Origin: Rugosimonospora sp.
Lineage (GTDB): Bacteria; Actinomycetota; Actinomycetes; Mycobacteriales; Micromonosporaceae
DNA: 64,000 bases
Assembly (NCBI GenBank): GCA_036494675.1
Contig: DASXOA010000078.1
Span: 797 to 64,796 of the forward strand
Reading direction: 5' to 3'
Shown here: in pieces, positions 24,233 to 44,501 of the stretch
Layout: the number at the start of each line of letters is the position of its first letter
How positions within the stretch are numbered: the stretch's first letter is position 1
Translations under genes and position numbers: made by a program
Notes under the pieces: generated by a model
The model's database searches: none
Told to the model about the DNA's origin: nothing
What the model saw: only the letters and a program-made list of their open reading frames with translations

Positions 24233-24322
24233 GCCCTGAGCCTAGTCGAGCCATGCCCGAAGGTCGTCGGCGCGCGGGGTCACATATCGGGGAAGTCCTC
24301 CGGTGTTGGCACGTCCGCCGGT

Positions 24323-26018: not shown

Positions 26019-26105
26019 GGGGGGGCAACCTACCTATCTTCGAGCGAGCGCCTGCGGATGCTACCACTGAAGCAATCATCTTGTCCGATCCCTGACACTG
26101 GCACC

Positions 26106-28499: not shown

Positions 28500-28572
28500 G
28501 CTCTCCCCCGATGGGCGCGCCGCGAGGACCGGGTTCGGCCCGACCCACGGACGGTACCGGGCATCGTCACGA

Positions 28573-29589
28573 TCATTGCGTGGGCATCTGCTGTGACTCG
28601 ACGCGCTGGGACGGGACGTACGCGCCCGATGCCCCGATGGGGCCACCCGTCGCCGCGGGGCCCGCGAGGACGGGGGCGCCGACGCGCTCCCGCACCACGT
28701 AGGTGGGCCGGCCCATGCCCCGGGCGTGCACCCGGCCGATGTACTCGCCGAGCACGCCGATGGCGATCATCTGCGCCGAGGAGAAGATGGCGACCATGGT
28801 GGCGATCGTGGTGAAGCCGGCGACGGTCGTGTTGCCCACGAAGTACAGCCAGAGCAGCCGCACCGAGAGCAGCAGGCCGCACACCCCGATGAGGAAGCCG
28901 AGGTAGGTGACCAGCCGCAGCGGCTTCGTCGAATACCCCATCACCATGTTGATGGTGTGCCGGACCAGAGACCGGAAGGTATAGGCCGATTTGCCCACGG
29001 TGCGCTCGTCCATCCGCACCGTCAGGCCGCCCACCCTGCTGGTCGCCCAGGACAGCGCCACGTCCACCGACGCGTGCGGGCCCTCCACCTGGTCGAAGGC
29101 GGCCCGCAGGAAGGACCGGAAGATGCGGAACGGGCTGAGCAGCCGCGCGTTCTGGATACCCATCCCGCTGGACATGACCGCCTTGGTCGCGCGCGCGGCG
29201 AAGCTGCGCATGATCGCGTGCTCCTCCTCGGCGGCCGTGGCGTAGACCAGGTCCAGGTCGTCGGTGAGCGCGGCGACCAGCTTCGGCAGCTCCTCCGGCA
29301 GGTGCTGGAGGTCGTCGTCCATGGTGATGATGAGCTCGTGGCGGGTGGCCCTGATACCCGCGATCAACGCGCTGTGCTGCCCGTAGTTGCGGGCCATGCG
29401 GATGGCCTGGACGTGCTCGTACTTCACGGCCAGTCCGCTGGCCACCCCCCAGGTCTCGTCCGGGCTGTCGACCACCAGGATGACCTCGTAGTCCGGGGTG
29501 AGTGTGGGAAGCACCTCGTTCAGCCGCTCGATCAGCGGCGGAAGGGTGAGCGCCGAGCGGTAACAGGGGATGACGACTGAGATGGACAT
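28573..29589 (-). CDS. ArnC/GtrB-like GT2 (candidate polyprenyl-phosphate sugar synthase)
   Basis: MSISVVIPCYRSALTLPPLIERL...ILVVDSPDETW...NYGQHSALIAG...ITMDDDLQH. Two C-terminal TM helices (LRLVTYLGFLIGVCGLLL and FTTIATMVAIFSSAQMIAIGVLGEYIGR), as in ArnC, GtrB and DPM synthases. Confidence 0.85.
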   Translation of the reverse strand: MSISVVIPCYRSALTLPPLIERLNEVLPTLTPDYEVILVVDSPDETWGVASGLAVKYEHVQAIRMARNYGQHSALIAGIRATRHELIITMDDDLQHLPEELPKLVAALTDDLDLVYATAAEEEHAIMRSFAARATKAVMSSGMGIQNARLLSPFRIFRSFLRAAFDQVEGPHASVDVALSWATSRVGGLTVRMDERTVGKSAYTFRSLVRHTINMVMGYSTKPLRLVTYLGFLIGVCGLLLSVRLLWLYFVGNTTVAGFTTIATMVAIFSSAQMIAIGVLGEYIGRVHARGMGRPTYVVRERVGAPVLAGPAATGGPIGASGAYVPSQRVESQQMPTQ

Positions 29590-29632
29590 CGGCTGCTCCT
29601 ATCGCCGGCCGGGGCGGGCGAACCCTGACACG

Positions 29633-30553
29633 CTATTTCACCGGCTTACGGGCTTCGATCACAAATCCGCTCGCGATCACCGAGGCGGCCGGGTGCCGGG
29701 CGAGCAGCAGGTCGAGCACCTTCAGCGGCGACAGGACCCAGGTCAGCGGCACCAGCAGCCGGTACAGCCGGGAGCTGCCGAAGGACAGCACCATCGCGAG
29801 CCACTCCTGGAGTACCCAGAGCAGGCCGGAGGTGGGGCCGGCGCCGACCCGCACGTCGACCACCTCGAAGCCGGGGAACTGCTCGCGCAGCCCGACGTTC
29901 GTGTACCGCTGGAAGTCGTACGGCGAGGCATGGAACGGCTGCATGAACGGGACGAAACAGAGCAGCCGGCCGCCCGGCGCCAGTACCCGCAGAATCTCCG
30001 CGATGTGGGCGGCCGGGTCCGGCACGTGCTCCAGTACGGCGATGCTCATCGCACCGGCCAGGCTGCCCTCCGCCACCGGCAGGTGCCGCAGGTCGGTGAC
30101 GATGTCGACCTCGTCGTAGTTGCCACCGTCCACGCACACCAGCCGCGGGTCGCGCCGGTGGGTGCCCGATCCCAGGTCCGCCACCAGGTCCCGGTCCAGG
30201 TCGAAGCTGTCGAGGAACGGCTTGACGAACCGGACGGACATCACCGGCGAGAGCACCGAGATGGCCATCGGGTAGATCCGGCTGAAGCGCTGCTTGACGC
30301 CTTCCTTGAGGCGGTTGAGCGGATCCTGCTTGAGTTCGGCCTCGCCGAAGCCGCCGAACCGCAACTGGTGGCCGTGGCGCTTGCCTGCCACGCCGCACTG
30401 GGCGCAGGCGAGGTCCCCGGTCAGCGTGCCATGACAGGTCGGGCAGACCAGTACGCCGGCCAACCGCTCCCCACGGTCCGTAGCGGCGCCCGAGTCGGCC
30501 GGCTGACCGGTCGCTGTCTGCGTGGCTGCGGCGGAGCCGTTCACATACCTCAC
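29633..30553 (-). CDS. SAM-dependent methyltransferase with an N-terminal zinc-ribbon
   Basis: CPTCHGTLTGDLACAQC precedes the methyltransferase core (ADLGSG...AVLEHVPDPAAHIAEILRVLAPGGRLL). A hydrophobic C-terminal segment follows. Confidence 0.75.
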   Translation of the reverse strand: MRYVNGSAAATQTATGQPADSGAATDRGERLAGVLVCPTCHGTLTGDLACAQCGVAGKRHGHQLRFGGFGEAELKQDPLNRLKEGVKQRFSRIYPMAISVLSPVMSVRFVKPFLDSFDLDRDLVADLGSGTHRRDPRLVCVDGGNYDEVDIVTDLRHLPVAEGSLAGAMSIAVLEHVPDPAAHIAEILRVLAPGGRLLCFVPFMQPFHASPYDFQRYTNVGLREQFPGFEVVDVRVGAGPTSGLLWVLQEWLAMVLSFGSSRLYRLLVPLTWVLSPLKVLDLLLARHPAASVIASGFVIEARKPVK

Positions 30554-30729
30554 CCGATCTCGCTATTCGATGATGTGGTGGGCGTCGACGACGTGATCGC
30601 GACCGTCCGGAAGGGTCCCAGAAATGGGCGGAAGATCACGCGAAGCACCTTCGACGGAGTGTAGACGTAGCGCTGCGCTACCGTGAGCCGGGCGCCCGCC
30701 GCGCGGCACTCCCGGCGTGACCTCGCGAT

Positions 30730-32247
30730 TCAGCTGTACGGGCCGTGACTGAACAGCTCGAACGCCACCCAACCGGCCGCGATGACGACGAGCCCGACCT
30801 GTGTCGCGTAACGGGACCAGACGGACACGTTGGATAGTCGGGACGCAATCCAGCCGATCAGGATCAGCAGCAGCGGCACCACGTGGTACGTGAGACGGTA
30901 CGCCCAGAATCCGAGGCCCCACAGGAACGCCAGCGTGCACAGCACGGACACCCCGGTGGCGGCGAGCGCCGCACGCTGGCCGGGTTCGCCGGCCACGATG
31001 TCGACCCGCAGGAACACCGCGCCCACGGCCAGTACGGCCAGCACGGCCACCAGCAGCCAGGTCACCTCGATGAGCTGGCCGCCGGTCATCATGGTGGCGT
31101 TGGACAGCGCGTGGACCAACGGCCTCCACCCCGCCGCGGCGGCCTGCGGCAACCAGACGAACTCGTGATAGGTCACCGCCTCGTGGTTGTAGTAGGTACC
31201 GGTGACGGCGCGGCAGATCTCTATCCACACGAGCGTCGGCGCGGCGGACGCCGCGAGCAGCACCGCCGCCTTCGCCACCGCCAGGCGCAGCGCGGGCACC
31301 CGCCGCTCGGCCGTGATCAGGATGGTCAGCGCCCCGGCGGCCACCGTGATCAGCACGCTCGCGTAGGCCAGCGCGCTGATCCCGAGAATCAGCCCCGCCG
31401 TGGCGGCGAACCGCCAGGACGGACGGTTCAGGAACAACCAGCGGCAGACCACCGCCGTCGCCATCGGGACCAGGAGGCCGAACATCTGCTGGTGCGGTGG
31501 CCAGTAGTAGGCCTTGGTCATGTCGTTGACGGCGAGGATCGCGGTCAACGACCAGGTGACCGCCGGCGGCGCCCCGATCAGCAGCATGAGCCAGAGGAAC
31601 AGAGCGACCGCGGCGGCCGCGACGACGAGGTTGATGAGCACCATCGGGATGAACGCGCTGTCGCTCTGCCCGTACAGTGCGTCGAGACCGACCCAGTGGG
31701 CGACCGGCCCGATCACGGCCGTCGCGGCCGCGGCGAGGTACACGTACACCGGCCGGGACTGGCGGACGCTGTCCTTCTGGAGCAGGAGTTGTGGCTTGTG
31801 CGCCAGTTGCATGAACAGGGGCGAGTCGCAGTTCATCGGGTACCCGAGATGGGCGTCGATCCGTACCGGGGTCCCGCACGGCAGCGTCTTGTCCATCGGG
31901 GCGAGCAGCAGCAGATGCGCGGCGGCCAGGACGACGACGAACCCGGTCCCGGCGAGAACCACGGGCCTGACCCGCCGGGCCGCACCGGCCTGCGCGACCG
32001 CCTCCGGGCGAGCCGCCGCGCGGTGGTGCTCCACGACCCAGAGCCCGGTCAGCAGCACGGCACCCGCGATGCCGACCACCGCGACGGTCACCATGCCGGT
32101 CGGCTGGATCAGGGTGCGGTCCGAACACCGGTCGTACCCGAACAGGCAGATGCTCTGGCGCGCATGATCGACCAGGAGCCACGCCGCGACGAAACCGCAC
32201 CAGCCGAGCAACAACCATCCGCTGACCTTGCCGCTGATCTTCCGCAC
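30730..32247 (-). CDS. Polytopic membrane protein, unknown family (GT-C-like candidate)
   Basis: 505 aa with at least 11 TM helices. An early loop reads PMNCDSPLFMQLAHKPQ. GTG start. Confidence 0.6.
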   Translation of the reverse strand: MRKISGKVSGWLLLGWCGFVAAWLLVDHARQSICLFGYDRCSDRTLIQPTGMVTVAVVGIAGAVLLTGLWVVEHHRAAARPEAVAQAGAARRVRPVVLAGTGFVVVLAAAHLLLLAPMDKTLPCGTPVRIDAHLGYPMNCDSPLFMQLAHKPQLLLQKDSVRQSRPVYVYLAAAATAVIGPVAHWVGLDALYGQSDSAFIPMVLINLVVAAAAVALFLWLMLLIGAPPAVTWSLTAILAVNDMTKAYYWPPHQQMFGLLVPMATAVVCRWLFLNRPSWRFAATAGLILGISALAYASVLITVAAGALTILITAERRVPALRLAVAKAAVLLAASAAPTLVWIEICRAVTGTYYNHEAVTYHEFVWLPQAAAAGWRPLVHALSNATMMTGGQLIEVTWLLVAVLAVLAVGAVFLRVDIVAGEPGQRAALAATGVSVLCTLAFLWGLGFWAYRLTYHVVPLLLILIGWIASRLSNVSVWSRYATQVGLVVIAAGWVAFELFSHGPYS

Positions 32248-32481
32248 GGAAGGAGTGTACGGATCATGATTTTCGATGGGACACGAGAGGCGCCCCCGGC
32301 AAGTACACTATCGGCCGGTCGACGCCGCGCCGATCGAATCGCCTGTTCACCTCGCGGCAACCTGAATCAGAAGCGGCGCAAATCAGAAACGACTCTGGGA
32401 CACAAGAGTGCTGACTAGTTCGATGACGCGCGCCTCGACCCGCTGGGATCGGGGCGCGGGAGCGGTCGGGGTTGGATTGCC

Positions 32482-34884
32482 ATGGTGAGCAGCTCGGTTG
32501 TCGTCCGGCCCGAGGAAGCCTTCGAGAACGGTCCTCCGGGGGCGAGGCCGTCCGGATTCCGGCGCCTGAGGGCCGTGCCGCGCTCCGGTTGGGTACCGAC
32601 CGTGCTGGTCGTGATCGCCACCGTCGAGGTGTTGCGGCTCTACGCCGTACCGGCCGCGACCACCGCGGTCTTCCTCGGCTACATCTGCGCCGGCGTCGCC
32701 CTGCCCGGAACGCTGGTGTACCGCGCCATCCAGCGCCGGTCCGGGTGGTTCGTCGGGGACGTCGCCGCCGGCACCGCGCTCGGCTACGCGGGCGAGGTGC
32801 TCACCTACATCCCGGCCCGGGCGCTCGGCGCACCGCTGCTCGTGCTGCTCTGGCCGGGTGTTGTGATCGCGCTGTTCGCCGCCGTGCCCGGGCTGCGCCG
32901 GTACTGGCGTGGCTCCGGCGACCCCGCGCAGCGCACGCCGATCTGGGTGGCCTGGTCGCTCTCCGCCGCGTTCGGCATCCTCGTCTACTGGAGCTCCACC
33001 GGGTTCTTCCGCACGCAGGGGCTGTACTGGCCGTCCATGGGCGCACCCGACGCGGACTCGCCGTTCCACCTGGCGCTGATCGGCGAGGCCAAGCACCACA
33101 TGCCGATGATGTCGCCGTGGGTGACCCACGAGCCCGTCTACTACCACTGGTTCGTCTACGCGGAGATGGCGGCCACCAGCTGGGTCACCGGCATCGAGCC
33201 GCAGGTGCTCCTGCTGCGACTGTCGTTGCTGCCGTTCATCGCCACGTTCCTGGTGCTCATGGCGGTGCTCGGTCGCCGGCTGACCGGCACCTGGTGGGCG
33301 GCGCCGGTGGCCGCCACGGCAACGTTCTTCGTGCTGGCGCCCAACCCGTACCCGTGGTCGCTGTCCGGATGGTTCTCGGCGTTCGCCACCAGCCCGTACG
33401 ACGACGGTTCGGTGTTCCGGAAGGTCATGTGGACCAGCCCGACCCAGACCTTCGGCCAGATGCTGTTCGCCGCGTGCATGCTGGCGCTCGTCGGCCTGCT
33501 GAAGCGCGACCGCCTGGGTGCCCGGCAGTGGATCCTGTGGACGGTCATGATTCTGGCGGTGATGGGCGGCAAGGCGACATTCCTGCCCATGCTGCTCGCG
33601 GCGCTGCTGCTCGTCGTCGCCGTACACCTGGTGGCCCACCGCCGGCTCCACCGGCCCGCACTCATCGCCTCCGGGATCACCTTCGTCTGTGTGCTGTTCG
33701 CGCAGTTCGTGCTGTTCGGCGGCGCCTCGCAGGGGTTGGCCATCAGCCCGCTGCACCAGATGACGATCTCCGGCGGTTCGTACACCACCGGGTTCGCGGT
33801 CCCGGGCCACCACGCGTCGCTCAAGCGGCTGCTGCTGGTGCTCGCGCTGACGCTGCTGTGCTGGGCCTTCGTCTGGGCCGGAATCGCCGGCCTGGCGGGC
33901 CGCCGCCGGTACCTCGACCCGGTCGTGGTGGTGCTCATCGGCGTCGGCCTGGCGGGGATCGGCGGCATCCTGCTCTTCGGCGACGACGGCGGCGCCGAGG
34001 GCTGGTTCCTGAACTCGTCCCGGCCCTACCTCACGCTCGCCGCGGTCGTCGGGGCGGTCGCGGTCACCCGGGTGTCCCGGATGACCTGGCGGGTCGGGGG
34101 CGCTCTGGCCGGCAGCACGCTGCTCGGGGCGCTGATCGTGGCCGCGCTCCGGCACTTCAGCCTGGCACGCGTTCCGACGGCGCGGCGGGTGGGCGGCAAC
34201 CGGCAGGTCGCCTGGGCGCTCACCTGGCCGTACCTGCTTCTGGTCCTGGCCGTCGTGGTCTTCGCCGCCGCGGTGTTCCTCGTCCGGCGACGGTGGTCGA
34301 CCCTCCAGGGCCTGGCACCGACGCTGGTGCTGAGCCTGGTCGCCGGTATGGGGCTGTTCGCCACCGCCAACCTCCTGCTGGACAACGCCAGGCTCGTGTC
34401 CACCGCGGGCTGGCACAACGTGGTCGCCATCCCGCCGTTCATCACGGAAGGGACGATGGAGACCGGCCGCTGGCTGCGCGACCATTCCCAGCCCAACGAT
34501 CTCGTGGCGACCAACGCGCACTGCGTGCCGTACCCCGATGACCCGGCGACGGCGTGCGACAACCGGCACTTCTACTTCTCGGCGTACTCCGAACGCCGGT
34601 TCCTCCTGGAGGGCTGGGGCTTCACCAACGACACGCACGTCTCGGGCAAGGCGACGAACACGAACATCGTGTACGCGCCGTACTGGGACCCGCGGATCCT
34701 GGCGGACAACGATGCCGCGTTCGCCAGGCCGTCCGCGCAGACCATCGGTCTGCTCCGCGACAAGTACCATGTGAAGTGGCTCTGGGTCGACGACACGGAG
34801 AACGTGCCCAGCCCGGACCTGTCGAAGTACGCGACGCTGCGGTTCCGTTCCGGCGACTGCGCGGTCTACGAGATCAACGCCTGA
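32482..34884 (+). CDS. Large GT-C-like polytopic membrane protein (paralog C2)
   Basis: 800 aa. Shares with C1: GTALGYAGEV, PDADSPFHLALIGEAKHHMPM, YYHWFVYAEMAATSWVTGIEP, MGGKATF, ATNAHC, YSERRFLLEGWGFT, ILADNDAAFARPSAQTI, ATLRFRSGDCAVYEI. Confidence 0.7.
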   Translation: MVSSSVVVRPEEAFENGPPGARPSGFRRLRAVPRSGWVPTVLVVIATVEVLRLYAVPAATTAVFLGYICAGVALPGTLVYRAIQRRSGWFVGDVAAGTALGYAGEVLTYIPARALGAPLLVLLWPGVVIALFAAVPGLRRYWRGSGDPAQRTPIWVAWSLSAAFGILVYWSSTGFFRTQGLYWPSMGAPDADSPFHLALIGEAKHHMPMMSPWVTHEPVYYHWFVYAEMAATSWVTGIEPQVLLLRLSLLPFIATFLVLMAVLGRRLTGTWWAAPVAATATFFVLAPNPYPWSLSGWFSAFATSPYDDGSVFRKVMWTSPTQTFGQMLFAACMLALVGLLKRDRLGARQWILWTVMILAVMGGKATFLPMLLAALLLVVAVHLVAHRRLHRPALIASGITFVCVLFAQFVLFGGASQGLAISPLHQMTISGGSYTTGFAVPGHHASLKRLLLVLALTLLCWAFVWAGIAGLAGRRRYLDPVVVVLIGVGLAGIGGILLFGDDGGAEGWFLNSSRPYLTLAAVVGAVAVTRVSRMTWRVGGALAGSTLLGALIVAALRHFSLARVPTARRVGGNRQVAWALTWPYLLLVLAVVVFAAAVFLVRRRWSTLQGLAPTLVLSLVAGMGLFATANLLLDNARLVSTAGWHNVVAIPPFITEGTMETGRWLRDHSQPNDLVATNAHCVPYPDDPATACDNRHFYFSAYSERRFLLEGWGFTNDTHVSGKATNTNIVYAPYWDPRILADNDAAFARPSAQTIGLLRDKYHVKWLWVDDTENVPSPDLSKYATLRFRSGDCAVYEINA

Positions 34885-34888
34885 TCCT

Positions 34889-34930
34889 CGCGCCGTCGGG
34901 CCGGCACGAACGGCCGGTCCGACGGGCGCG
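34889..34930. terminator. Hairpin at the convergent junction between C2 and the LuxC-like gene
   Basis: cgcgccgtcgggccgg - loop - ccggtccgacgggcgcg. About 15 bp of stem with one bulge and one mismatch, and no U-tract. It lies between stop codons at 34884 and 34933. Confidence 0.45.
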
Positions 34931-34932
34931 GG

Positions 34933-36165
34933 TCACGCCTGGATGGTCGTGATCCGGGTGAACTCGCGCAACAGGTCGTACCCGTCCCAGGTTCCGGCGA
35001 AGGTCAGCGCGGAGCCGAACGGGACGATGCGGTCGACCCCGCGCCCGGCGACCGCGGTGACGAAGTCGTCGAGTTCGGCCATGGAGAAGCCGAACTGGGC
35101 GAAGGTCTGGTCCTTGCGCCGGATCGTCGGTACCAGTTCGGTGAGCGACCCGACCGTCAGGTGGCAGATGGTGCCGGCTCCCAGCCACCGTTGCGGTACG
35201 GCGTCCAGATCGGCCAGGTCGACGCTGGCCACGGCGTTGCCGGCGAAGGTGACCCGGCGGGCCGCACCGGTAGCGGCCAGCCCATAGGTGGCCACCCGCT
35301 TCTCCACCGCCATCGCGGCGTCGACGCCCCAGCCGCGCTCGGCGACGACCTCGTCGAGCAGCGCCATGAACTCCGACCGGACCTCGGCGACATCGGCCGC
35401 GTCCCCGACCCAGAACAGGTTGCGGGGCGAGGAGCAGGCGGCCTGGTCGAACCAGAAGATGTCGTTGGCGAAGCCGTCGACCGCGGCACGGCGGGCCTGG
35501 GCCCCGGTCGCCCGCCAGCCGTCGACCGACACCGCCGCGAACGAGGACCGGTCGGGGAACGGCAGGTCGCGCGCCAACGGCGGCAGCGGGTGCCGGCGGA
35601 TCTGGGTCACCGACTCGTCCCCGCCCCAGATGACGCGCAGGTCGCAGGCCGCCGACAGAGCCGCCGTCGTCGCGTCGTCCCGCTCGTACGTGATCATGCG
35701 CTGGGTCTGCGCGACCACGGGGTCGGACTCGGCCAGGACGTCGTTCAGGGCCGACAGCACGCTGCTCGCGGCGCCCGCCGACCGGGGCGAGACCCGGACG
35801 ATGTTGCGGTTGCCGGCCAGCGCCGACAGCGCCCAGGAGTACACGAAGATGGTATCGACGTTCGCCGGCGGGAAGTGCAGCACCAGGCCGCGGGGTGCCC
35901 GGCGGCTGCCGCCCGCCCCGTCGTACAGGCGCTCGACCGCCCGGGCGATCTCACCGCGACGCAGGAAGAAGCCCAGCGAGCCCAACTCCGGGTACCGGCG
36001 GGCCAGGTCGGGTCGCAGCAACCGCCGGGAGAACGCGGTGAGGAATTCACGGATCCGCTCGTCGCCGACCGTCAGCCGGCCGCCGGCCGGCTCCTCCCCC
36101 AACTCCTTGAGCAGACCTTCGACGGTCGTGTCCGACCCTGCGGGGAACCGCACCGCCACGCTCAC
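34933..36165 (-). CDS. LuxC-family acyl-CoA/acyl-protein reductase-like protein
   Basis: GTG 36165 overlaps the stop codon of the upstream gene (GTGA). 410 aa. Contains ...NRNIVRVSPRS..., RVIWGGDESV, and FDQAACSSPRNLFWV, a putative catalytic Cys in an ALDH-like context. Confidence 0.7.
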   Translation of the reverse strand: MSVAVRFPAGSDTTVEGLLKELGEEPAGGRLTVGDERIREFLTAFSRRLLRPDLARRYPELGSLGFFLRRGEIARAVERLYDGAGGSRRAPRGLVLHFPPANVDTIFVYSWALSALAGNRNIVRVSPRSAGAASSVLSALNDVLAESDPVVAQTQRMITYERDDATTAALSAACDLRVIWGGDESVTQIRRHPLPPLARDLPFPDRSSFAAVSVDGWRATGAQARRAAVDGFANDIFWFDQAACSSPRNLFWVGDAADVAEVRSEFMALLDEVVAERGWGVDAAMAVEKRVATYGLAATGAARRVTFAGNAVASVDLADLDAVPQRWLGAGTICHLTVGSLTELVPTIRRKDQTFAQFGFSMAELDDFVTAVAGRGVDRIVPFGSALTFAGTWDGYDLLREFTRITTIQA

Positions 36166-37229
36166 GCGCCGCCACCTCCGCTGAACGTGTCGCTGCACCC
36201 ACGCGCCTCCGCGCGGGGCAACCGGCCAAGGATGCTGAACCGCTTGCCGGGCCAGGCGCCGTCGTCCACGCCGTGCACGGTGCCCAGGTCCTCGGTCAGC
36301 AGCACGTGCCCGGGGTAGGACTCCGGCAGCGTGCTGACGACCTCGACCAGCCCGGGCCGGCCGGGCGGGAGTTCCTGCCAGGTCTCCGGATCCCGGATGA
36401 TCACGTCGGCGAAGTCGGGGCAGTAGAGCGAGTCGCCCTCCGGCCCTTCCAGGTAGACGACCCCGATCTGCTCGACCATGCCGTAGAAGTTGTGGATCCG
36501 GGTCAGCCCGGTGTCGGCCGCGAAGGCCCGGCGGAACTCGGCGTTGTCCACCGAGCGGTCGACCAGCTTCTTCCATCCGCCGGAGTGGATGAGGAGGCCG
36601 TTGGACAGGTCGAGCCCGTGATCGCGGGCCAGCTCGTACAGGTACAGCCACACCATGAAGGTGAAGCCGAAGATCAGGAAAGGCTGGTCGCCGTGCTTGG
36701 CCAGGAAGCCCCGCACCGCCTCCAGGTCGGGCTCACCGGACTCGTCCAGGGCCCAGACGTGGTCCCGACCGAAGTTGACCATGCCCAGGACGCCGGCACC
36801 CCGCGCGCTGAACGACGTGCGGTTCTTGATCACCGAGGTGGTGTCCACGACCAGCATCGGCAGCCGGCGCGGGCCGAGCACACTCTGGATCGTCCGGGAC
36901 AGCATCCTGGTCTGCGTCGCGGCCGCCTGCCGGTCCAGGTAGATCCGGCTGACGTCGCCGGTGGTACCGCTGGAGGTGAGCACCTTGAAGACGTCCTCGT
37001 CCGGGACGCTCTTGAGTACCTGCGTCTTGAACAGCCGTACCGGCAGCCAGGGCAGGTCGGCCACCGATCCGTACGACCGGCCGGGCCCGTGCCCGATCGC
37101 GGACAGGATGTTGGCGTACGCCGCTCCGCCGGCCCGGTGCCGTTCGGTCAGCTCGACCAGCTCCGGCAGCAGCCGCTCTTCCTTCTGGGCCTGGGACAGC
37201 GTGAAGACGCTCTCGGTCGCGATGGTCAT
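36162..37229 (-). CDS. LuxE-family acyl-protein synthetase-like adenylating enzyme
   Basis: ATG 37229 overlaps the ligase stop codon (ATGA). 355 aa. Contains LTSSGTTGDVSRIYLD, HSGGWKKL and NFYGMVEQ. Confidence 0.7.
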   Translation of the reverse strand: MTIATESVFTLSQAQKEERLLPELVELTERHRAGGAAYANILSAIGHGPGRSYGSVADLPWLPVRLFKTQVLKSVPDEDVFKVLTSSGTTGDVSRIYLDRQAAATQTRMLSRTIQSVLGPRRLPMLVVDTTSVIKNRTSFSARGAGVLGMVNFGRDHVWALDESGEPDLEAVRGFLAKHGDQPFLIFGFTFMVWLYLYELARDHGLDLSNGLLIHSGGWKKLVDRSVDNAEFRRAFAADTGLTRIHNFYGMVEQIGVVYLEGPEGDSLYCPDFADVIIRDPETWQELPPGRPGLVEVVSTLPESYPGHVLLTEDLGTVHGVDDGAWPGKRFSILGRLPRAEARGCSDTFSGGGGA

Positions 37230-38653
37230 CCCGTCTTCTCCGACGCGCGGTTCTCCAACGTACGATAGTCGATCTTGCCGTTGCCCAGCAGCGGCAGCGA
37301 CTCGATGCCGCGCACGTCGAACCCGGTCCGGTGCAGGTTCAACCGGTCCGCGAGCGTGCTCGCGCAGCGCGCCGCCGAGTCGGCCGACGCCCCCTCCAGC
37401 CACACGACGATCTTGTCCTCGCCGTTGACCGCGGCCACGGCGCCGTGCTCGTGCAGCATCGCCTCGATGTCGTCGAGGTTGAGCCGGACCCCGAACACCT
37501 TGCCGAAGCGCTTGAGCCGCCCGCTCAGGAACAGGTACCCGTCCTCGTCCAGGTGGCCCAGGTCGCCGGTCTCCAGCAGGCCGCCCCGCTCGTCGCCGCG
37601 GCCGAGGTCGGCCGAGGTCTCGGCGTACCCCAGCATGACGTTCGGCCCCCGGTAGAGCACCTCGCCGCTGACCCCGGGCTCCGTGGTCTCGGTGCCGTCG
37701 TCCAGGCGCACCGACAGCCGCCCGCCGGGAACCGCCGGGCCGACCGAACCGATCTTCTCGGCGAGCCGCTCGGCCGGCAGCGTGGTGAGCCGCGGCCCGG
37801 CCTCGGTCTGGCCGTACATCACGTACAACCCGCCGCCCACGGCGGCCATCCGCTGCTGGAAGTCGGCGACCCGTTCCGGGCGCAGCCGGCCACCGGCCTG
37901 GGTCAGGGTACGCAGGGTCGGGTGCTTCGCCGGATCGAAGCGCAGCCGGCGGAGCATCTCGTACTGGTACGGGACGCCGGAGAACGACGTGACGCCGTAG
38001 GTGTCGACCGCGTCCCAGAACGGCCGGTGCATCAGGCCGCCCTCCTCCAGCAGCATGGTGGCGCCGCTGGACAGGTGGGTGTTGAGCACCGACATGCCGA
38101 AGCTGTAGAAGAACGGCAGGCTGCTCACCGCGACCTCGGTCGCGTCGATGCGCAGCGCCTCGACGATCGACGCGGTGTTGGCCAGGATCGCGGAGCGCGA
38201 CAGCCGGACCAGCTTCGGATTGCCGGTCGAGCCGGACGTGGCGAGCAGGATCCCCAACTGCGGATCGGGCCGGGTACCGGACGGCGACTCCCGCTGCCAC
38301 AACGGTCCCAGCACCGGGTCGGCGACCCGCCGGTACCCCTTGGGCGCCTCGTCCGGCTCCGGCGCGGCGTCCAACCCGAGGACGAGCGCCGGTTCGAAGC
38401 GGTCGACGAGGTCGGCCAGGATCTGCCCGCTCAACGCCGGATCCAGCAGTGCCACCGGACGGTGCGCCTGCCATGCGCCCAGGTACCGGACCACCGCGGC
38501 CGTCTCGACGGGGATCCGCAGGAACACCGGGCCCGGCAGCCGTTCGGCGTAGGCTCCCGCCGCGGCGGCCACCTCGTCGACCAGCGCGGCCCCGCCCAGC
38601 GTCGCGCCGGTGGCCGCGTCGGTGAGCCGGGCACCGGGGTGCAGCAGCGACAT
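37226..38653 (-). CDS. AMP-dependent synthetase/ligase (ANL adenylating enzyme)
   Basis: ATG 38653 overlaps the SDR stop codon (ATGA). 475 aa. Core motifs: LATSGSTGNPKLV, YGQTE, GDLGHLDEDGYLFLSGRLKR, LLGNGKIDY. Confidence 0.85.
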   Translation of the reverse strand: MSLLHPGARLTDAATGATLGGAALVDEVAAAAGAYAERLPGPVFLRIPVETAAVVRYLGAWQAHRPVALLDPALSGQILADLVDRFEPALVLGLDAAPEPDEAPKGYRRVADPVLGPLWQRESPSGTRPDPQLGILLATSGSTGNPKLVRLSRSAILANTASIVEALRIDATEVAVSSLPFFYSFGMSVLNTHLSSGATMLLEEGGLMHRPFWDAVDTYGVTSFSGVPYQYEMLRRLRFDPAKHPTLRTLTQAGGRLRPERVADFQQRMAAVGGGLYVMYGQTEAGPRLTTLPAERLAEKIGSVGPAVPGGRLSVRLDDGTETTEPGVSGEVLYRGPNVMLGYAETSADLGRGDERGGLLETGDLGHLDEDGYLFLSGRLKRFGKVFGVRLNLDDIEAMLHEHGAVAAVNGEDKIVVWLEGASADSAARCASTLADRLNLHRTGFDVRGIESLPLLGNGKIDYRTLENRASEKTG

Positions 38654-39408
38654 CAGATCACCAGCCCGCCGTCGACCGCGACGACCTGACCGGTGACGAA
38701 CCGCGCCGCGTCGGAGAGGAGGAAGGCGATCACGTCGGCAACGTCCTCGGGCTGCCCGAGCCGGCCGAGCGAGGTCTGCGCGATCCGTGCGGCGCGGCCG
38801 GCGTCGTCGAGCGAGTCGAGCATGTCGGTGCTGATGAAGCCCGGGGCCACCGCGTTGACGCGGATGCCCGCCGGGCCCAACTCCTTCGCCGCGCCCTGGG
38901 CCAGACCGGCGACGGCGGCCTTCGCCGCGCCGTAGAGCACCTGCCCGGACGCGCCCCGGGTGCCCATCACCGACGACACCAGGACCACGGCCGGCGACGT
39001 GCCGCGACGCAGCAACCTGACCGCGGCCTGCAGGGTGTTCGCCGCGCCGACGGCGTTGACCGCGAAGAGCCGTTGCACGCTCGCGTCGGGCATCATCCCG
39101 AGCAGCCCGGCCTCGTGCGTGCCGGCGTTGACGACAAGCGCGTCGAGCCGCCGGCGCCATTCGAAGACCTGGCGCATCATCGCATTGACGTCCGCCGGGT
39201 CGGCCACGTCGCCGTGGAGCACCCGGACCTCGGTGCCGTAGGCGTCGATCAGCTCCTCGGCGGTGCGCTTGGCGGAGCCGTCCTGCACTCCGTGCAGGGC
39301 CAGCGCGTAGCCGTCGGCCGCGAGTCGGTGAGCGGTCGCCCTGCCGATCCCCCGGGAGGACCCGGTGACCAGGGCGACCCTCGACTCATCCGGCGATGTC
39401 GACGTCAT
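38653..39408 (-). CDS. Short-chain dehydrogenase/reductase (FabG-like)
   Basis: VALVTGSSRGIGRA (TGxxxGxG), NAG, YGAAKAAV (YxxxK), and a FVTGQVVAVDGG tail. Confidence 0.9.
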   Translation of the reverse strand: MTSTSPDESRVALVTGSSRGIGRATAHRLAADGYALALHGVQDGSAKRTAEELIDAYGTEVRVLHGDVADPADVNAMMRQVFEWRRRLDALVVNAGTHEAGLLGMMPDASVQRLFAVNAVGAANTLQAAVRLLRRGTSPAVVLVSSVMGTRGASGQVLYGAAKAAVAGLAQGAAKELGPAGIRVNAVAPGFISTDMLDSLDDAGRAARIAQTSLGRLGQPEDVADVIAFLLSDAARFVTGQVVAVDGGLVI

Positions 39409-39631
39409 GCTTTCCCAGAATCTCCACCGCCTTGGTGAACGAACTCATGTCGATCACCTCGTCGGTGTCGATCATGACGTCGAAGGCGTCCTCGATCTCG
39501 GCGATCAGCGCCATGTGCGCCAGCGAGTCCCACTTTTCGATGCCGCGGTATTCCAGCGAATCGACGTCGTAGTCCTCGGAAAGGTCCAGCGCCGTACGGA
39601 ACGCCACACGCAATCGATCGATATTGCTCAT
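39386..39631 (-). CDS. Acyl carrier protein
   Basis: 81 aa from ATG 39631, MSNIDRLRVAFRTALDL...EKWDSLAHMALIAEIEDAF... The DSL motif contains the phosphopantetheine-attachment Ser. Overlaps the SDR start by 23 nt. Confidence 0.8.
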   Translation of the reverse strand: MSNIDRLRVAFRTALDLSEDYDVDSLEYRGIEKWDSLAHMALIAEIEDAFDVMIDTDEVIDMSSFTKAVEILGKHDVDIAG

Positions 39632-39732
39632 GAATTGATCCTCTTCGGGGTCGGGGACCAGCGGGCGGCACTGCAACAGCACGCGAGTGTACCCTTGGCC
39701 GGTCTTCAGGCGGGTAGGAGGGATCGGCCCAG

Positions 39733-40239
39733 GTGCTACGCGAGGCGACCGACGCGGACGTCGACACCATCAGGCAGTGGCGCAATCATCCCAAGGTGCG
39801 GGGCGCCAGCATCATGACCGATTTCATCACTCCCGAGGGCCATGCCCAGTGGTGGGCCAATGTCTCCGCCGATCCCCGTCGCCGGGTGCTGATCTTCGAG
39901 CACGGCGGAGTCCCGTGCGGCGTCGTCACCATCAACGACCACGATCCGGACGCCGGCACCGCCGAGTGGGGCTTCTTCCTCGACGTCGAAGGCCTGCAGG
40001 AACGCGGCACCCTGCTGCCGGCGTGGCTCGAACTGGAGAAGGCCGCGATCGCCTTCGGGTTCGACGAACTGGGACTGACCGCGATGGGTGGCCGGACGCT
40101 GGCCTGGAACAAGCAGGTGCTGGCGCTGCACCGCCGGTTCGGCTTCGTCGAGGTGCCGGAACGCCGGTACGTGACCCAGATCGACGGCGCGGACCAGGAC
40201 GTGCTCTGGACCGAGCTGACCGCCCAGCGCCGCCGTTAG
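39733..40239 (+). CDS. GNAT N-acyltransferase, PseH-like
   Basis: 168 aa. MLREATDADVDTIRQWRNHPKVRGASIMTDFITPEGHAQWW...AEWGFFL...AWNKQVLALHRRFGFVEV resembles aminosugar N-acetyltransferases of the PseH type. Confidence 0.75.
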   Translation: MLREATDADVDTIRQWRNHPKVRGASIMTDFITPEGHAQWWANVSADPRRRVLIFEHGGVPCGVVTINDHDPDAGTAEWGFFLDVEGLQERGTLLPAWLELEKAAIAFGFDELGLTAMGGRTLAWNKQVLALHRRFGFVEVPERRYVTQIDGADQDVLWTELTAQRRR

Positions 40240-40274
40240 CCGTCACCGCGGCTGATCGTCACCGCCGCTGGCCG

Positions 40275-42548
40275 TCAGCCGTCACCGCGCAGCGCCGTTC
40301 CGACCGCCGGCCGGGCGGGTGCCACCTCGGACCGCCCGGCCGCCATCCTCGGCGCCAGGAGGCCGGCGACGGCCAGCAACAGTGCCGGGTACACGGCCAG
40401 GAGCCAGGCGGCCGACAACCCCGGCCGGCCCGCGTGGATGAGGCCGGCCACCACCGCGACACCCAGGGCGTACCACGTCGACGCGCTGCGCCACTGGACC
40501 GCCAGGGCGGCGATCGCGACGAACACGGCAAGGTACAGCACCCGATCGTGCGCGATCGCCCGGAAGTCCGCCGACGCGAGGTGGTTGACCGACCACGGGT
40601 GCCAGATCAGGTCGCCGGCTGCTCCACGTACCCCGAGAATGACCGCACCCACCACGGCGGCGGTGGCGGCCGACGGCGCCCAGGCATTGGCCGGCCGGCG
40701 CAGTACCGCGGCGGCGGCGAGCCAGCCGGCGATGGGCCCGGCGGCGAGCGCGAGACCCTCCACGGACACGGCGCCGGCCAGCGCGATGACCGCCGCGATC
40801 CCCGCCAGCCGGCGCAACCCCGTCCAGTCGGCCGGCCCGTCGCGGGTCGGCAGCAGGGCGAGAAGCACGGTCGCGGCGGCCAGGACCACTGCCCGGCGCC
40901 ACGAATCCAGGGCCGCACCGACCATCGCGCCCGACAGCGCGAGTGTCAGCCCCGCCAGGACACCGGCGCTGGCCCCGAACCGGTCGGCGACCATCACCAC
41001 CAGTTGCACGAAGGCCACCGTCAGCAGGACGAAGGACAGTGCGATCAGTACGCCGCCGGACGGCTTGTCCCGCCGCCACACGACCAGGACGGCGCCGAGG
41101 AAGGTGAGGCCGACCAGCACCCACGCGGCCATCGACACCGCCGGCCGGCCGGCCACCCCGGCCCGCGGCGGGCCCACCGGGTGGTCCGTCGCTCCGGGCC
41201 GCGGCACGCCCGCCGGCCAGGGCATTCCCGCCGGCTGCGCCCGGTCGGCCGGCACCGGCGCGGCTTCCGTCGAGCGCGACGGTGACCGGCGGGGACGCGC
41301 GGCGAAATCGGCGACCACGGCCAGCCCGGCGAGCAGGATCAGCGGCTGGATCGGCACGAAGTACCGGTAGTACGAGGGCCAGACCACCAGCAGGTTGAGC
41401 ACGATGGTCGCCAGCGCGGCACCGACGGTCAGGGCGGTCAGCTCGCTGCGCCACCGCCAGAGCACCGCCACGACCGCCAGTACGACGATCGCCAGCAGTG
41501 CGAGGTCCCCGCGGAGCGTGCCGTAGTCGGCCCGGGCGATGTAGCGCATCCCCCACGGCAGGCTGGCGATCCCGCAGTGGTGCAGGGCGTGGCAGGTCAA
41601 TTGCTGGTACCGGCCGGAGAGGTCGAGCGCCGCGCCACCGAACCAGATCCGGGTCACCACCGACTGGGCGGCCAGGGTGGCGGCGGTGACCCCGACGGCG
41701 ACCAGGGCGAAGCGCCACCACACGTTGGCCCAGCGGCGCTCCCGTGCCGCGACGACCAGCCAGGCCAGCACCACACCGGCGGTCAGCGCGATCCCGAACT
41801 GCCGCACGCACAGCCCGAGTACCAGCGTGACCCCGAACCACAGCAGGTCGCGGCGCTTCGGGACCCGGGCGAGCGGCAGGAACAGCACGCACGCCACGGT
41901 CAGCGCGACGGCCAGCGCCTCGGTCATCGCGTACACGCCGAACCGGGACACCGTCCCCGGGATCAGCAGCAGCAGCCCCGCCAGCAGCCCCCAGTACCGC
42001 CCCCACAGCCGGTGGGCCAGCAGCGCCACCAGGGCGACCGCGACCCCGAAGCTGACGACCGGCACGACCAGCATGCCGTAGGGGCCGAACAGGCCCACGA
42101 ACGGCGAGGACAGCAGCGGGTACAGCGGGCGGGCGCCGACGACCGCCCCGTTCGCGCCGGAGAAGAACCCGTGCTCGTACCCGGCGGGCCAGCACAGCGT
42201 GTCGCACGGCCGCACGCCGTCCATGTTGGCCAGGAAGTCGCGGGTACGGTGCGCGGACTCCGTCTGCGAGTAGCCCAGGTACCGGTACGACCAGGCGAGG
42301 TAGAGCCGGGAATCGGAGATCCACTGGGTACGGGTGACGATGTTGGCCCAGCACACCACCGCGTAGCAGGTGCCGAGCAGCAGCCAGCCCCAGGCCGGTA
42401 CCGCGGCGGTCAGCCGTGCCCACAATGACGCCATGGGGCTCCCGTCGTCCGGTCGTCGTTGCTTCCCGGCGGCCGCCTGTTCAAGGGCCCGGCGATATCC
42501 GCCGCGGTAACCTACCACCGGCGCGGGCCGCGATGTGACCCATCGCAC
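40275..42548 (-). CDS. Two-domain polytopic membrane protein (paralog B2), ArnT/PMT-like N-domain
   Basis: Collinear with B1: WISDSRLYLAWSYRYLGYS, CWPAGYEHGFFSGANGAVVGARPLYPLLSSPFVGLFGPYGMLVVPV, RRDLLWFGVTLVLGLCVRQF, YYRYFVPIQPL. Alternative start ATG at 42434. Confidence 0.7.
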   Translation of the reverse strand: MRWVTSRPAPVVGYRGGYRRALEQAAAGKQRRPDDGSPMASLWARLTAAVPAWGWLLLGTCYAVVCWANIVTRTQWISDSRLYLAWSYRYLGYSQTESAHRTRDFLANMDGVRPCDTLCWPAGYEHGFFSGANGAVVGARPLYPLLSSPFVGLFGPYGMLVVPVVSFGVAVALVALLAHRLWGRYWGLLAGLLLLIPGTVSRFGVYAMTEALAVALTVACVLFLPLARVPKRRDLLWFGVTLVLGLCVRQFGIALTAGVVLAWLVVAARERRWANVWWRFALVAVGVTAATLAAQSVVTRIWFGGAALDLSGRYQQLTCHALHHCGIASLPWGMRYIARADYGTLRGDLALLAIVVLAVVAVLWRWRSELTALTVGAALATIVLNLLVVWPSYYRYFVPIQPLILLAGLAVVADFAARPRRSPSRSTEAAPVPADRAQPAGMPWPAGVPRPGATDHPVGPPRAGVAGRPAVSMAAWVLVGLTFLGAVLVVWRRDKPSGGVLIALSFVLLTVAFVQLVVMVADRFGASAGVLAGLTLALSGAMVGAALDSWRRAVVLAAATVLLALLPTRDGPADWTGLRRLAGIAAVIALAGAVSVEGLALAAGPIAGWLAAAAVLRRPANAWAPSAATAAVVGAVILGVRGAAGDLIWHPWSVNHLASADFRAIAHDRVLYLAVFVAIAALAVQWRSASTWYALGVAVVAGLIHAGRPGLSAAWLLAVYPALLLAVAGLLAPRMAAGRSEVAPARPAVGTALRGDG

Positions 42549-42719: not shown

Positions 42720-44501
42720 TTACAGGTACTGGCCGGTGTTGGTGACCGTGTCGATCGAGCGCCCGGAGTCGGTGCCCTTGCCTCCGGAGACCAGCGTGCG
42801 GATGTACACGATCCGCTCGCCCTTCTTGCCGGAGATCCGAGCCCAGTCGTCCGGGTTGGTGGTGTTGGGCAGGTCCTCGTTCTCCCGGAACTCGTCGACG
42901 CACGCGTCGAGCAGGTGCTGCAGGCGCAGCCCCTTGCGCGCCGAGGAGAGGAACTCCTTGATCGCCATCTTCTTCGCCCGGTCGACGATGTTCTGGATCA
43001 TGGCACCGGAGTTGAAGTCCTTGAAGTACAGGACCTCCTTGTCACCGTTGGCGTAGGTGACCTCCAGGAACCGGTTCTCCTCCGTCTCCGAGTACATCCG
43101 CAGCACCGCGGCCTCGATCATCGCGGCCACGCACGCCTTGACGTCGCCACCGTGCTCGGCCACGTCGTCCACGGACAACGGCAGGTCCGAGAGGATGTAC
43201 TTGCTGAAGATGTCCCGGGCAGCCTCGGCGTCCGGCCGCTCGATCTTGATTTTCACGTCGAGCCGGCCGGGGCGCAGGATGGCCGGGTCGATCATGTCCT
43301 CCCGGTTGGACGCGCCGATCACGATGACGTTCTCCAGGCCCTCCACGCCGTCGATCTCGGAGAGCAGCTGGGGAACGATCGTGTTCTCCACGTCGGAGGA
43401 GACACCGGAGCCGCGGGTCCGGAAGACCGAGTCCATCTCGTCGAAGAACACGATCACCGGGGTACCCTCGCCGGCCTTCTCCCGTGCACGCTGGAAGATC
43501 AGCCGGATGTGGCGCTCGGTCTCGCCCACGTACTTGTTGAGCAGTTCGGGCCCCTTGATGTTGAGGAAGTAGCTGGTGTGCTTCTCCTCGCCACGCCGCT
43601 CGGCGATCTTCTTGGCCAGCGAGTTGGCCACCGCCTTCGCGATCAGGGTCTTGCCGCAGCCGGGCGGACCGTAGAGCAGCACGCCCTTGGGCGGACGCAA
43701 CTGGTGCTCACGGAACAGGTCGGCGTGCAGGAACGGCAACTCGACGGCGTCGCGGATCTGCTCGATCTGGGAGTGCAGGCCGCCGATGTCCTCGTACCCG
43801 ACGTCCGGCACCTCCTCCAGGACCAGTTCCTCGACCTCGCTCTTGGGCACCCGCTCGTACGCATAGGCGGAACGCGGCTCGATGAGCAGCGAGTCGCCGG
43901 AGCGCAGAGCCGCCACGTTGAGGCTCTCCGCCAGGTGCACCACCCGCTCCTCGTCGGCGTGCGAGATGACCAGGGCGCGGTCGGGCTTGCCGTCGATCAG
44001 GCTGTCCAGGACTTCCTTGAGCATGACCACCTCGCCGGCGCGCTCGAATCCGAACGCGTCGACGATGTTCAGTGCGTCGTTGAGCAGGACTTCCTGGCCT
44101 CGGCGCAGATCTTCCGCCTGCAGCGCCGGCGAAACCGCCACCCGCAGCTTGCGACCGCCGGTGAACACGTCCACCGTGCCGTCCTCGTGCCTCCCGAGGA
44201 ACACGCCGTAGCCGCTGGGCGGCTGGGCGAGCCGGTCAATCTCCTCCTTGAGGGTCACGATCTGGGCACGCGCCTCCTTGAGCGTGGCCACCAGCCGCTC
44301 GTTGTTCTCGGTCAGCCGGGCCAGCTGTGCCTGAGTCGCGGCGAGCCGCTCCTCCAACTGGCGCACATGCCTCGGGCTCTCGGTCAGCTTGCGCCGCACC
44401 AGAGCGAGTTCCTCCTGCAGGAACGCGACCTGGGTCGAGAGATCGTGGGCCTCCTTCTCCCAACGGGCGGCGCGGGTCTCCGCGTCGTCACTACGTGCCA
44501 C
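42720..44501 (-). CDS. arc: Proteasome-associated AAA ATPase ARC/Mpa
   Basis: 593 aa. N-terminal coiled coil, Walker A GPPGCGKT, and the C-terminal GQYL proteasome-docking motif. Confidence 0.95.

Follow-up and report, generated by a model that had tools for sequence, protein, structure and literature searches.

What does a bacterium build with five coupled genes that bring together two adenylating enzymes, a thioester reductase, a further reductase and a single carrier protein, and where does the product go? This question is raised by a locus in a 64-kb stretch of DNA from Rugosimonospora sp. (70% G+C), hereafter the window, by which we mean that whole stretch; a LuxC-like protein encoded in it has an identical counterpart in a Rugosimonospora sp. 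metagenome-assembled genome. On the minus strand of the window, positions 34933-39631 hold five open reading frames (ORFs) for an acyl carrier protein (ACP), a classical short-chain dehydrogenase/reductase (SDR), an ANL adenylase, a LuxE-like protein and a LuxC-like protein, with an overlap at each junction. By analogy with described systems, we lean, with somewhat more belief than doubt, toward the reading that this cassette makes an unusual acyl-ACP donor, a short omega-hydroxyacyl group derived from a dicarboxylate, for the N-acylation of a 4-amino-4,6-dideoxyhexose. The cassette was already known by annotation, has been discussed in two comparative papers (PMC7874193, PMC4875605) and is paralleled functionally in Vibrio cholerae. 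What is new here is an actinomycete member in an Arn-like envelope-glycan locus, together with three conserved actinomycete contexts.

The five genes form a conserved unit

The five minus-strand ORFs called by the initial annotation were all present in the frames that it gave. Three of the junctions that it described also stood: the ACP and SDR genes overlap by 23 nucleotides (nt), the ANL and LuxE-like genes have a common ATGA (37226-37229) and the LuxE-like and LuxC-like genes a common GTGA (36162-36165). The fourth, between the SDR and ANL genes, needed a minor correction, being TGATG (...ATC TGA TG...) and not ATGA, with the stop TGA at 38655-38653, the start ATG at 38653-38651 and a 1-nt overlap. 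An AAGAGGA Shine-Dalgarno sequence lies 8 nt 5' of the ACP ATG. Very long ORFs lying antisense or out of frame, for example 32383-34770 (minus strand, 795 aa, opposite the membrane protein gene M800) and 36162-38474 (minus strand), were rejected as high-G+C artefacts, their codon-position G+C being unlike that of coding sequence.

Related loci were sampled by a genome scan with a 17-sequence alignment of LuxC-like proteins, from which the best 80 loci, all actinomycete, were kept; a 43-sequence alignment was too diverse for this purpose. More distant contexts were taken from plasmids and metagenome contigs, outside the actinomycete scan. The order ACP-SDR-ANL-LuxE-LuxC was kept in 81 of 84 related actinomycete loci and the stop/start overlaps at the junctions were conserved in 60-72 of 78 loci, so the cassette is more than a chance arrangement. 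The identical five-gene set in the identical order was also recovered on a Deinococcus plasmid. A Roseobacter (Ponticoccus) plasmid keeps the ACP, SDR, ANL and LuxE genes in this order, and its LuxC gene is found on the opposite strand at a distance of about 2 kb. LuxE::LuxC fusions of 750-800 aa are common, and one of them lies within an ACP-SDR-ANL-LuxE::LuxC locus. The LuxC-like family as a whole comprises 2,411 clusters at 50% identity (E <= 1e-3), with relatives in at least 568 GTDB species genomes. Judged from these sequence comparisons, the five genes are one translationally coupled functional unit.

Family membership of the cassette proteins

Profile searches against Pfam and NCBIfam and, for the ACP, with a family profile upheld the family assigned beforehand to each of the five proteins, the LuxC-like and LuxE-like proteins matching their own families (Table 1). 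The motifs quoted for them were likewise all found: the DSL with its modifiable serine (Ser36) in the ACP, TSGSTGNPK and NGK (Lys460) in the ANL protein, TSSGTTG in the LuxE-like protein and DQAACSSP (Cys244) in the LuxC-like protein. Together with Cys345 of the LuxE-like protein and S146/Y159/K163 of the SDR, the residues Ser36, Lys460 and Cys244 are fully or almost fully conserved across 81-84 homologous loci, where a few flanking positions vary.

The LuxC-like and LuxE-like proteins were the sole sequence-level matches to 7xc6, the solved LuxC-LuxE fatty-acid reductase complex. The former reached 104.5 bits against PF05893 (gathering score 21), covering profile positions 82-400 of 401. Its FDQAAC244 aligns with YDQQAC of LuxC in 7xc6, and Cys244 is invariant in 43 diverse relatives as well as in the 84 loci. 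The LuxE-like protein aligns over its full length with LuxE of 7xc6, RGC345S lying over the C-terminal KGCS, and its TSSGTTG and Cys345 are invariant in the 84 loci. The aligned DQQAC and KGCS cysteines are the acyl-carrying cysteines of the luminescence system. The cassette pair thus has the same two folds and aligned key cysteines as its luminescence counterparts, but the relation is distant (E = 6e-7 and 2e-11) and the LuxC-like protein is about 70 aa shorter. Neither bioluminescence equivalog was reached (LuxC NF052251, 44.7 bits for a cut-off of 750; LuxE NF052244, 60.3 bits for a cut-off of 550). In contrast to the luminescence system, the cassette comes without LuxD and LuxAB and is coupled to ACP, ANL and SDR genes. 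On these alignments and scores, the two proteins are members of the LuxC and LuxE families and not orthologues of the luminescence enzymes. As a side observation, the LuxE-like protein weakly matches the DVU_1553-family AMP-dependent ligase (E = 2.8e-4) and the methyltransferase encoded at 29633-30553 weakly matches the DVU_1556-family methyltransferase (E = 1.7e-5), which may indicate a distant tie to a conserved Desulfovibrio gene set.

In the ANL protein, the A3 motif TSGSTGNPK and the A10 lysine, Lys460, are conserved in 83-84 loci. Among PDB structures the protein is most closely related to stand-alone ACP-loading adenylases (3wvn, 3wv4) and to oxalyl-CoA ligases, and we propose that the enzyme is an acid:ACP ligase. 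It attained no NCBIfam equivalog cut-off; AmcH-type 2-oxoglutaryl-ACP ligase and exosortase-associated ligase were both rejected as identities, with scores far under their cut-offs. The SDR, whose TGxxRGIG motif and Ser146/Tyr159/Lys163 triad are conserved in about 82 loci, fell short of the FabG equivalog TIGR01830 (215.4 bits, cut-off 297.75) and is proposed to be an aldehyde (or keto) reductase.

The single ACP sequence scored 19.3 bits against Pfam PP-binding, just under the gathering score of 20.8. When a 16-member family profile covering several phyla was used instead, about 60 ACPs of the PDB were matched, the best being 2lml (2.4e-7), whose WDSLSH aligns with the WDSLAH of the cassette ACP. 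This structure is that of GmACP3 from Geobacter metallireducens (Ramelot et al., 2011, as cited in PMC4847154). GmACP3 thus shares the WDSLxH motif and is the best PDB match of the ACP family, although its match to the single cassette sequence is weak (E = 0.049). The residues W34-D35-S36 are invariant in 81 loci and in homologues from Deinococcus, Rhodobacterales, Rhizobium and Firmicutes. An AlphaFold model built from the ACP sequence by itself had low confidence (pLDDT 50) and was left unused.

Sugar genes accompany the cassette

Whether the cassette co-occurs with lipid or polyketide genes rather than sugar genes had been set as a test beforehand, and sugar genes were found. Of the 84 loci, 73 have a gene for a DegT-family sugar aminotransferase no more than 10 kb from the cassette and 67 have one for an acyltransferase near it; in none of the 84 did lipid or polyketide genes accompany the cassette in place of sugar genes. 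The acyltransferase is either a homologue of the GNAT-family protein of the window (24 loci, within 10 kb, 49-76% identity) or an LpxA-like hexapeptide transferase of the acyl-ACP type, mostly encoded directly 5' of the ACP gene (43 loci).

We recognised three types of actinomycete loci according to the partners of the cassette. In type A (Dactylosporangium, Allorhizocola, Rhizocola and the Rugosimonospora window), it is found with the GNAT, a GT2 glycosyltransferase, GtrA, a WecE-type aminotransferase and a large membrane protein of about 790 aa. In type B (Micromonospora, Salinispora, Hamadaea, Actinomadura and, in part, Nonomuraea), it lies inside a cluster for pseudaminic acid (Pse) with PseB (485.7, cut-off 407.75), PseI (458, cut-off 340.25), PseC-like and PseF-like proteins and a GNAT with 50% identity to that of the window; in Salinispora and Micromonospora it is embedded in a PseB-PseC-PseI-PseF cluster. 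Type C, that of the Pseudonocardiaceae, combines it with an LpxA-like transferase, a PseC-like aminotransferase, an LPG_synthase_TM protein and a HAD hydrolase. A sugar N-acetyltransferase of the NeuD/PglB/VioB family (185.5 for a cut-off of 160.8) is encoded directly 3' of luxC in a polysaccharide locus of Deinococcus.

Two further loci are variants: a Rhizobium plasmid (L087, 3312-11194) and an Oscillospiraceae metagenome-assembled genome (MAG; L088, 167-10319) carry ACP, ANL, LuxE and LuxC genes with a split transketolase pair, and the latter additionally carries a thiamine pyrophosphate enzyme, NeuB and a thioesterase; these gene contents suggest a different acyl precursor. Two loci labelled 'Rhodococcus rhodnii' NRRL B-16535 (L027) and 'Candidatus Melainabacteria' MAG (L079) are Pseudonocardiaceae-like, with a LuxC-like protein 62-65% identical to that of the window, and their organism labels may reflect contamination or mis-binning.

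The amino sugar and its proposed export

The initial annotation had the 4-amino sugar made by adjacent genes. Such a sugar was supported, since the aminotransferase passes the WecE cut-offs (Table 1) and RmlA and RmlB are encoded in the window; 'adjacent' was generous, the aminotransferase gene being 9 kb away within the same locus. As the enzyme also matches WecE structures (PDB 6blg and 4piw at ~4e-122), the amine acceptor would be dTDP-4-amino-4,6-dideoxy-galactose or -glucose. The idea that this DegT enzyme transaminates the LuxC aldehyde and not a sugar was rejected, given the WecE cut-offs passed here and its position beside PseB and PseI elsewhere.

The link between the cassette and the divergent GNAT gene, also anticipated, was supported by synteny only: in loci of the Dactylosporangium type homologues adjoin the ACP gene, and in Pse clusters they adjoin PseI, the window GNAT being 49-54% identical to the PseI-adjacent GNAT of Salinispora- and Micromonospora-type clusters. 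It does not reach the PseH profile TIGR03585 (74 bits, cut-off 93.1), and we propose from these relations that it is an N-acyltransferase using acyl-ACP.

The GT2 protein has hydrophobic C-terminal segments corresponding to membrane helices, and its best NCBIfam matches are ArnC (166 bits, under the cut-off of 529) and PgfS (142 bits). In Dactylosporangium loci the GtrA gene is syntenic with the aminotransferase and GT2 genes, and an orthologue of the membrane protein M886 is syntenic with the aminotransferase-GtrA-GT2 group. M886 itself gave a confident AlphaFold2 model (pLDDT 89.8, pTM 0.90), whose top 13 Foldseek matches in the PDB were all GT-C enzymes (STT3, DPY19, ArnT 5f15/5ezm, AftA 8if8, PglB; probability 1.00); on the strength of this predicted fold, M886 is a GT-C-fold transferase. 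Its paralogue M800, whose gene ends 49 bp from the LuxC-like gene, matches the same loci and is by sequence probably a second GT-C transferase. Dactylosporangium genomes contain many paralogues of the M886/M800 family.

With its WecE-type aminotransferase, ArnC-like GT2, GtrA and GT-C-fold M886, the window thus parallels in its anatomy the Arn system that modifies lipid A with 4-amino-4-deoxy-L-arabinose (ArnB, ArnA, ArnC, ArnE/F and ArnT), in which a 4-aminotransferase, N-acylation, a GT2 acting on polyprenyl phosphate, a membrane helper and a GT-C enzyme outside the membrane follow one another. There are differences: the Arn sugar is a UDP-pentose and that of the window a dTDP-6-deoxyhexose, the N-acyl group comes from formyl-tetrahydrofolate in Arn and would come from the acyl-ACP cassette here, and no ArnD-type deacylase was seen in the window.

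A proposed route to a hydroxyacyl donor

The simplest explanation for two adenylating enzymes, a thioester reductase, a further reductase and a single carrier is a substrate with two carboxyls, one of which would be reduced while the other would form first the thioester and later the amide. The LuxE-like enzyme would adenylate one carboxyl of a small dicarboxylic acid (e.g. L-malate, succinate or malonate), hold the acyl group on Cys345 and hand it over to Cys244 of the LuxC-like enzyme, where NAD(P)H-dependent reduction would give the semialdehyde. The SDR would convert the aldehyde into an omega-hydroxy acid, and the ANL ligase would adenylate the second carboxyl and load it onto the phosphopantetheine of ACP Ser36, loading before reduction being equally possible. 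The GNAT could then move the hydroxyacyl group (2,4-dihydroxybutyryl-like, 4-hydroxybutyryl or 3-hydroxypropionyl) onto the dTDP-4-amino-4,6-dideoxy-galactose or -glucose supplied by RmlA, RmlB and the WecE-type transaminase. From there, the ArnC-like GT2 would transfer the N-acyl sugar to polyprenyl phosphate, GtrA would aid the membrane crossing of the lipid-linked form and the GT-C enzymes M886 and M800 would attach the sugar to an acceptor in the cell envelope. In this scheme we infer the substrate, the sequence in which the steps occur, the acceptor and the GNAT's use of acyl-ACP, as well as, by analogy, the product. That the cassette provides an acyl-ACP donor for N-acylation of the 4-amino sugar seems to us probable; for the specific hydroxyacyl chemistry our expectation falls a little below even.

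The closest functional parallel is the tetronate module of V. cholerae O1, VC0248-VC0252 (RfbK/L, WbeM/N/O), tetronate being the 3-deoxy-L-glycero-tetronyl or 2,4-dihydroxybutyryl group (PMC12208996, PMC9915646, PMC3441752), which N-acylates perosamine, itself a 4-amino-4,6-dideoxyhexose (PMC3441752). Matched by published function, this module and, as proposed, the cassette both comprise an ACP, an ANL enzyme of about 470 aa loading it, LuxE-type and LuxC-type proteins, an alcohol-forming reductase and an acyltransferase. Unlike in the cassette, LuxE and LuxC are fused in V. cholerae (WbeN, 2478 nt); among the top representatives the one LuxE::LuxC fusion is that of Parachlamydiaceae, and Vibrio is absent from its 120 best relatives. 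The V. cholerae sugar is GDP-perosamine whereas that of the window is a dTDP sugar, and the O-antigen is exported there by an ABC transporter whereas the window points to Arn-like decoration through a lipid carrier.

A second parallel is offered by flagellin glycosylation islands. The statement in the initial annotation that LuxC/LuxE cassettes with ACP and FabG occur in glycan-modification loci is true for those of Aeromonas and enterobacteria (PMC7874193, PMC4875605). Aeromonas Group II islands contain an ACP, a 3-oxoacyl-ACP reductase, an AMP-dependent synthetase, luxE and luxC (orf1-orf3-luxE-luxC) directly 3' of pseH (PMC7874193), and enterobacterial islands contain Acp, FabG, CaiC, LuxE and LuxC (PMC4875605). 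Compared by published description, they share with the window the five gene types, their order and their position beside a PseH-type GNAT. They differ in serving the O-glycosylation of Gram-negative flagellin with Pse, whereas the window holds an actinomycete envelope locus, presumably not flagellar, with a dTDP-sugar of the WecE type and GT2, GtrA and GT-C proteins. A Pse derivative of 376.14 Da and an unexplained moiety of 102 Da occur in A. piscicola AH-3, which bears the cassette (PMC7874193). If C4H6O3 (102.03) takes the place of one acetyl (42.01) in Pse5Ac7Ac (316.13), the mass becomes 376.15, a circumstantial fit that is compatible with dihydroxybutyryl.

Several points weigh against the hydroxyacyl donor. 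The likeness to V. cholerae is drawn from literature descriptions, and the reductase there is an iron-containing alcohol dehydrogenase whereas that of the cassette is an SDR. The acyltransferases also differ, that of V. cholerae being a hexapeptide transferase and that of the window a GNAT; GNATs are normally acyl-CoA-dependent. As the SDR is most like FabG ketoreductases (215 bits), its substrate could be a keto compound and not an aldehyde. The authors of 2lml, the orthologous ACP, reportedly read its cavity as suited to medium or long chains. The masses of 376 and 102 Da fit isomers such as O-methylglyceroyl equally well, and their link to the cassette is circumstantial. To our knowledge, the function of the cassette is assigned by annotation in all its members. 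Finally, Longispora fulva (L001, 6553-11230) has an intact cassette with no sugar genes within 10 kb, and the 8-10 kb around a second intact cassette (L089, 5621-10373) showed neither aminotransferase nor acyltransferase nor glycosyltransferase genes. In these two cases the partner genes may lie at another place in the genome, or the cassette may have a second use.

Alternative products

Four other products were weighed against the same evidence. The cassette might activate a medium- or long-chain fatty acid, which, as such or as the derived aldehyde or alcohol, would be attached to the glycan. LuxC and LuxE are fatty-acid reductase components, as in 7xc6, and the ACP of 2lml reportedly has a large hydrophobic cavity. 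A 'liposugar' has indeed been suggested for the flagellin islands (PMC7874193, PMC4875605). We nevertheless consider a fatty acyl product unlikely, because the LuxC and LuxE equivalogs were missed widely, the cassette comes without ketosynthase, acyltransferase, dehydratase, enoyl reductase or LuxD-type thioesterase, and nothing would remain for the ANL enzyme and the ACP once LuxC had reduced a monocarboxylic acid. The Aeromonas Pse derivative of 376 Da is, moreover, too small for a long chain (PMC7874193), and the V. cholerae analogue yields a C4 acid.

The FabG-like character of the SDR, whose nearest relatives are 3-oxoacyl-ACP reductases, would suit a 3-hydroxyacyl donor: the ANL enzyme would load a beta-keto acid (e.g. 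acetoacetate), the SDR would form 3-hydroxybutyryl-ACP, and LuxE and LuxC would act in a side reaction or on a second substituent. Both 4-amino-4,6-dideoxy sugars and pseudaminic and legionaminic acids commonly bear N-3-hydroxybutyryl groups. This scheme gives no role to LuxE and LuxC genes that are strictly co-inherited, coupled and often fused, however, and 3-hydroxybutyryl-Pse would have a mass of 360 Da and not 376 Da, so that we hold it to be slightly less likely still.

An aldehyde as the end product, an option raised by the initial annotation, is improbable. The LuxC aldehyde, free or ACP-bound, would form an imine with the 4-amino group of the sugar, to be reduced by the SDR to an N-alkyl sugar, or would be kept as aldehyde or cyclic hemiaminal. 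The sequences are compatible with this chemistry, as the cassette holds a thioester reductase and a second reductase. The ANL and ACP genes and the linked GNAT, LpxA-like and NeuD/VioB-like transferases nevertheless indicate acyl transfer, and the V. cholerae product is an amide. Least probable of the four is a role outside glycans (fatty alcohol, wax, lipid or a secondary-metabolite block) with sugar genes as chance neighbours, which L. fulva and L089 would fit, against the aminotransferases and acyltransferases of most loci, the three amino-sugar pathways and a link that extends across several phyla.

The strict coupling of the five genes to sugar acyltransferases is explained best by the hydroxyacyl-ACP donor, above all four alternatives. 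More broadly, the cassette could be a general, cross-phylum route from central-metabolism dicarboxylates to omega-hydroxyacyl-ACP and the so far unassigned origin of the groups of dihydroxybutyryl and hydroxybutyryl type that N-acylate 4-amino-4,6-dideoxy sugars and pseudaminic acids, including the 376-Da and 102-Da species of Aeromonas; here it would feed an as yet undescribed Arn-like Gram-positive envelope decoration with N-(hydroxyacyl)-4-amino-4,6-dideoxy-galactose from a locus inserted in a Pup-proteasome cluster. This wider proposal is speculative, and we are more inclined to doubt it than to accept it.

We regard the overall result as solid and of moderate interest, though no surprise. 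The cassette occurs very widely and has been in the flagellin-island literature for years with only the 'liposugar' guess. The tetronate logic of V. cholerae turns it into a concrete hypothesis, cheap to test, of how surface amino sugars acquire their hydroxyacyl decorations, which are antigenic and phage-receptor determinants. The comparison also flags three conserved and so far unstudied actinomycete envelope-glycan loci, of an Arn-like 4-amino-4,6-dideoxy-galactose type, a pseudaminic-acid type (Salinispora, Micromonospora) and an LpxA-like type (Pseudonocardiaceae).

Genomic setting of the locus

Between 4679 and 44501, the gene set of the Pup-proteasome (prokaryotic ubiquitin-like protein) is interrupted by two glycan regions, the second of which contains the cassette (Table 1). 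No flagellar genes were seen in the window, the neighbours being Pup-proteasome and envelope glycan genes.

Table 1. Positions of the cassette, its partner genes and the surrounding Pup-proteasome genes in the window.
Feature	Position	Strand	Match or remark
pafA	4679-6070
First glycan region	6063-19701		rmlC, methyltransferase, rmlA, membrane proteins, rmlB, rmlD, GT2
RmlC	6063-6698
RmlA-like sugar-1-phosphate nucleotidyltransferase	7461-8354	-	NTP_transferase 3.9e-71
RmlB, dTDP-glucose 4,6-dehydratase	12669-13694	+	PDB 1r66 at 7e-144; putative keto-sugar supply for the aminotransferase
RmlD	~13694-14590		follows RmlB
prcA and prcB	20180-22114
pup	within 22184-22723
dop	22724-24241
18-kb amino-sugar locus	24323-42548		between dop and arc/mpa
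GtrA-family small membrane protein	24323-24883 (stop-to-stop upper bound)	-	GtrA_DPMS_TM 3.5e-15; adjoins aminotransferase
WecE-type dTDP-4-keto-6-deoxyhexose 4-aminotransferase	24861-26018	-	NF008687 541 bits (cut-off 375); TIGR02379 505.8 (cut-off 434.85)
M886, GT-C-fold membrane glycosyltransferase, 797 aa	26106-28499	-	predicted fold; no Pfam match
GT2 polyprenyl-phosphate glycosyltransferase, ArnC/GtrB-like	28573-29589	-	Glycos_transf_2 1.1e-24
S-adenosylmethionine-dependent methyltransferase	29633-30553	-	Methyltransf_11 4.4e-9; N-terminal CxxC...CxxC
Polytopic membrane protein, 505 aa	30730-32247	-	no match in Pfam/NCBIfam searches
M800, M886 paralogue, 800 aa	32482-34884	+	52% identity to M886; no Pfam match; convergent with LuxC-like gene
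LuxC-like thioester (acyl-protein) reductase, 410 aa, GTG start	34933-36165	-	PF05893, E = 7.6e-30
LuxE-like acyl-protein synthetase, 355 aa	36162-37229	-	PF04443, E = 2.7e-49, 168.5 bits (gathering 24.9)
ANL adenylate-forming ligase, 475 aa	37226-38653	-	AMP-binding, E = 3.5e-42, 145 bits vs 29.9
SDR, classical, FabG-like, 251 aa	38653-39408	-	adh_short_C2, E = 4.5e-60
ACP, WDSLxH type, 81 aa	39386-39631	-	Ser36 predicted phosphopantetheine attachment site
PseH-like GNAT	39733-40239	+	Acetyltransf_3 1.7e-11; divergent from ACP gene
Polytopic membrane protein, 757 aa, possible glycosyltransferase	40275-42548	-	no Pfam match; weak NCBIfam LA_3751/LA_3752 putative glycosyltransferase, E = 2.9e-4
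arc/mpa	42720-44501

In the Dactylosporangium relatives, the cassette locus lies away from arc and dop. Further large polytopic membrane proteins, matching no Pfam or NCBIfam family, are encoded at 8549-10507 and 17071-19701. Adjoining pafA, positions 2154-4468 encode a WYL/WCX-domain regulator (PafB/PafC-like) and a DUF3866 protein.

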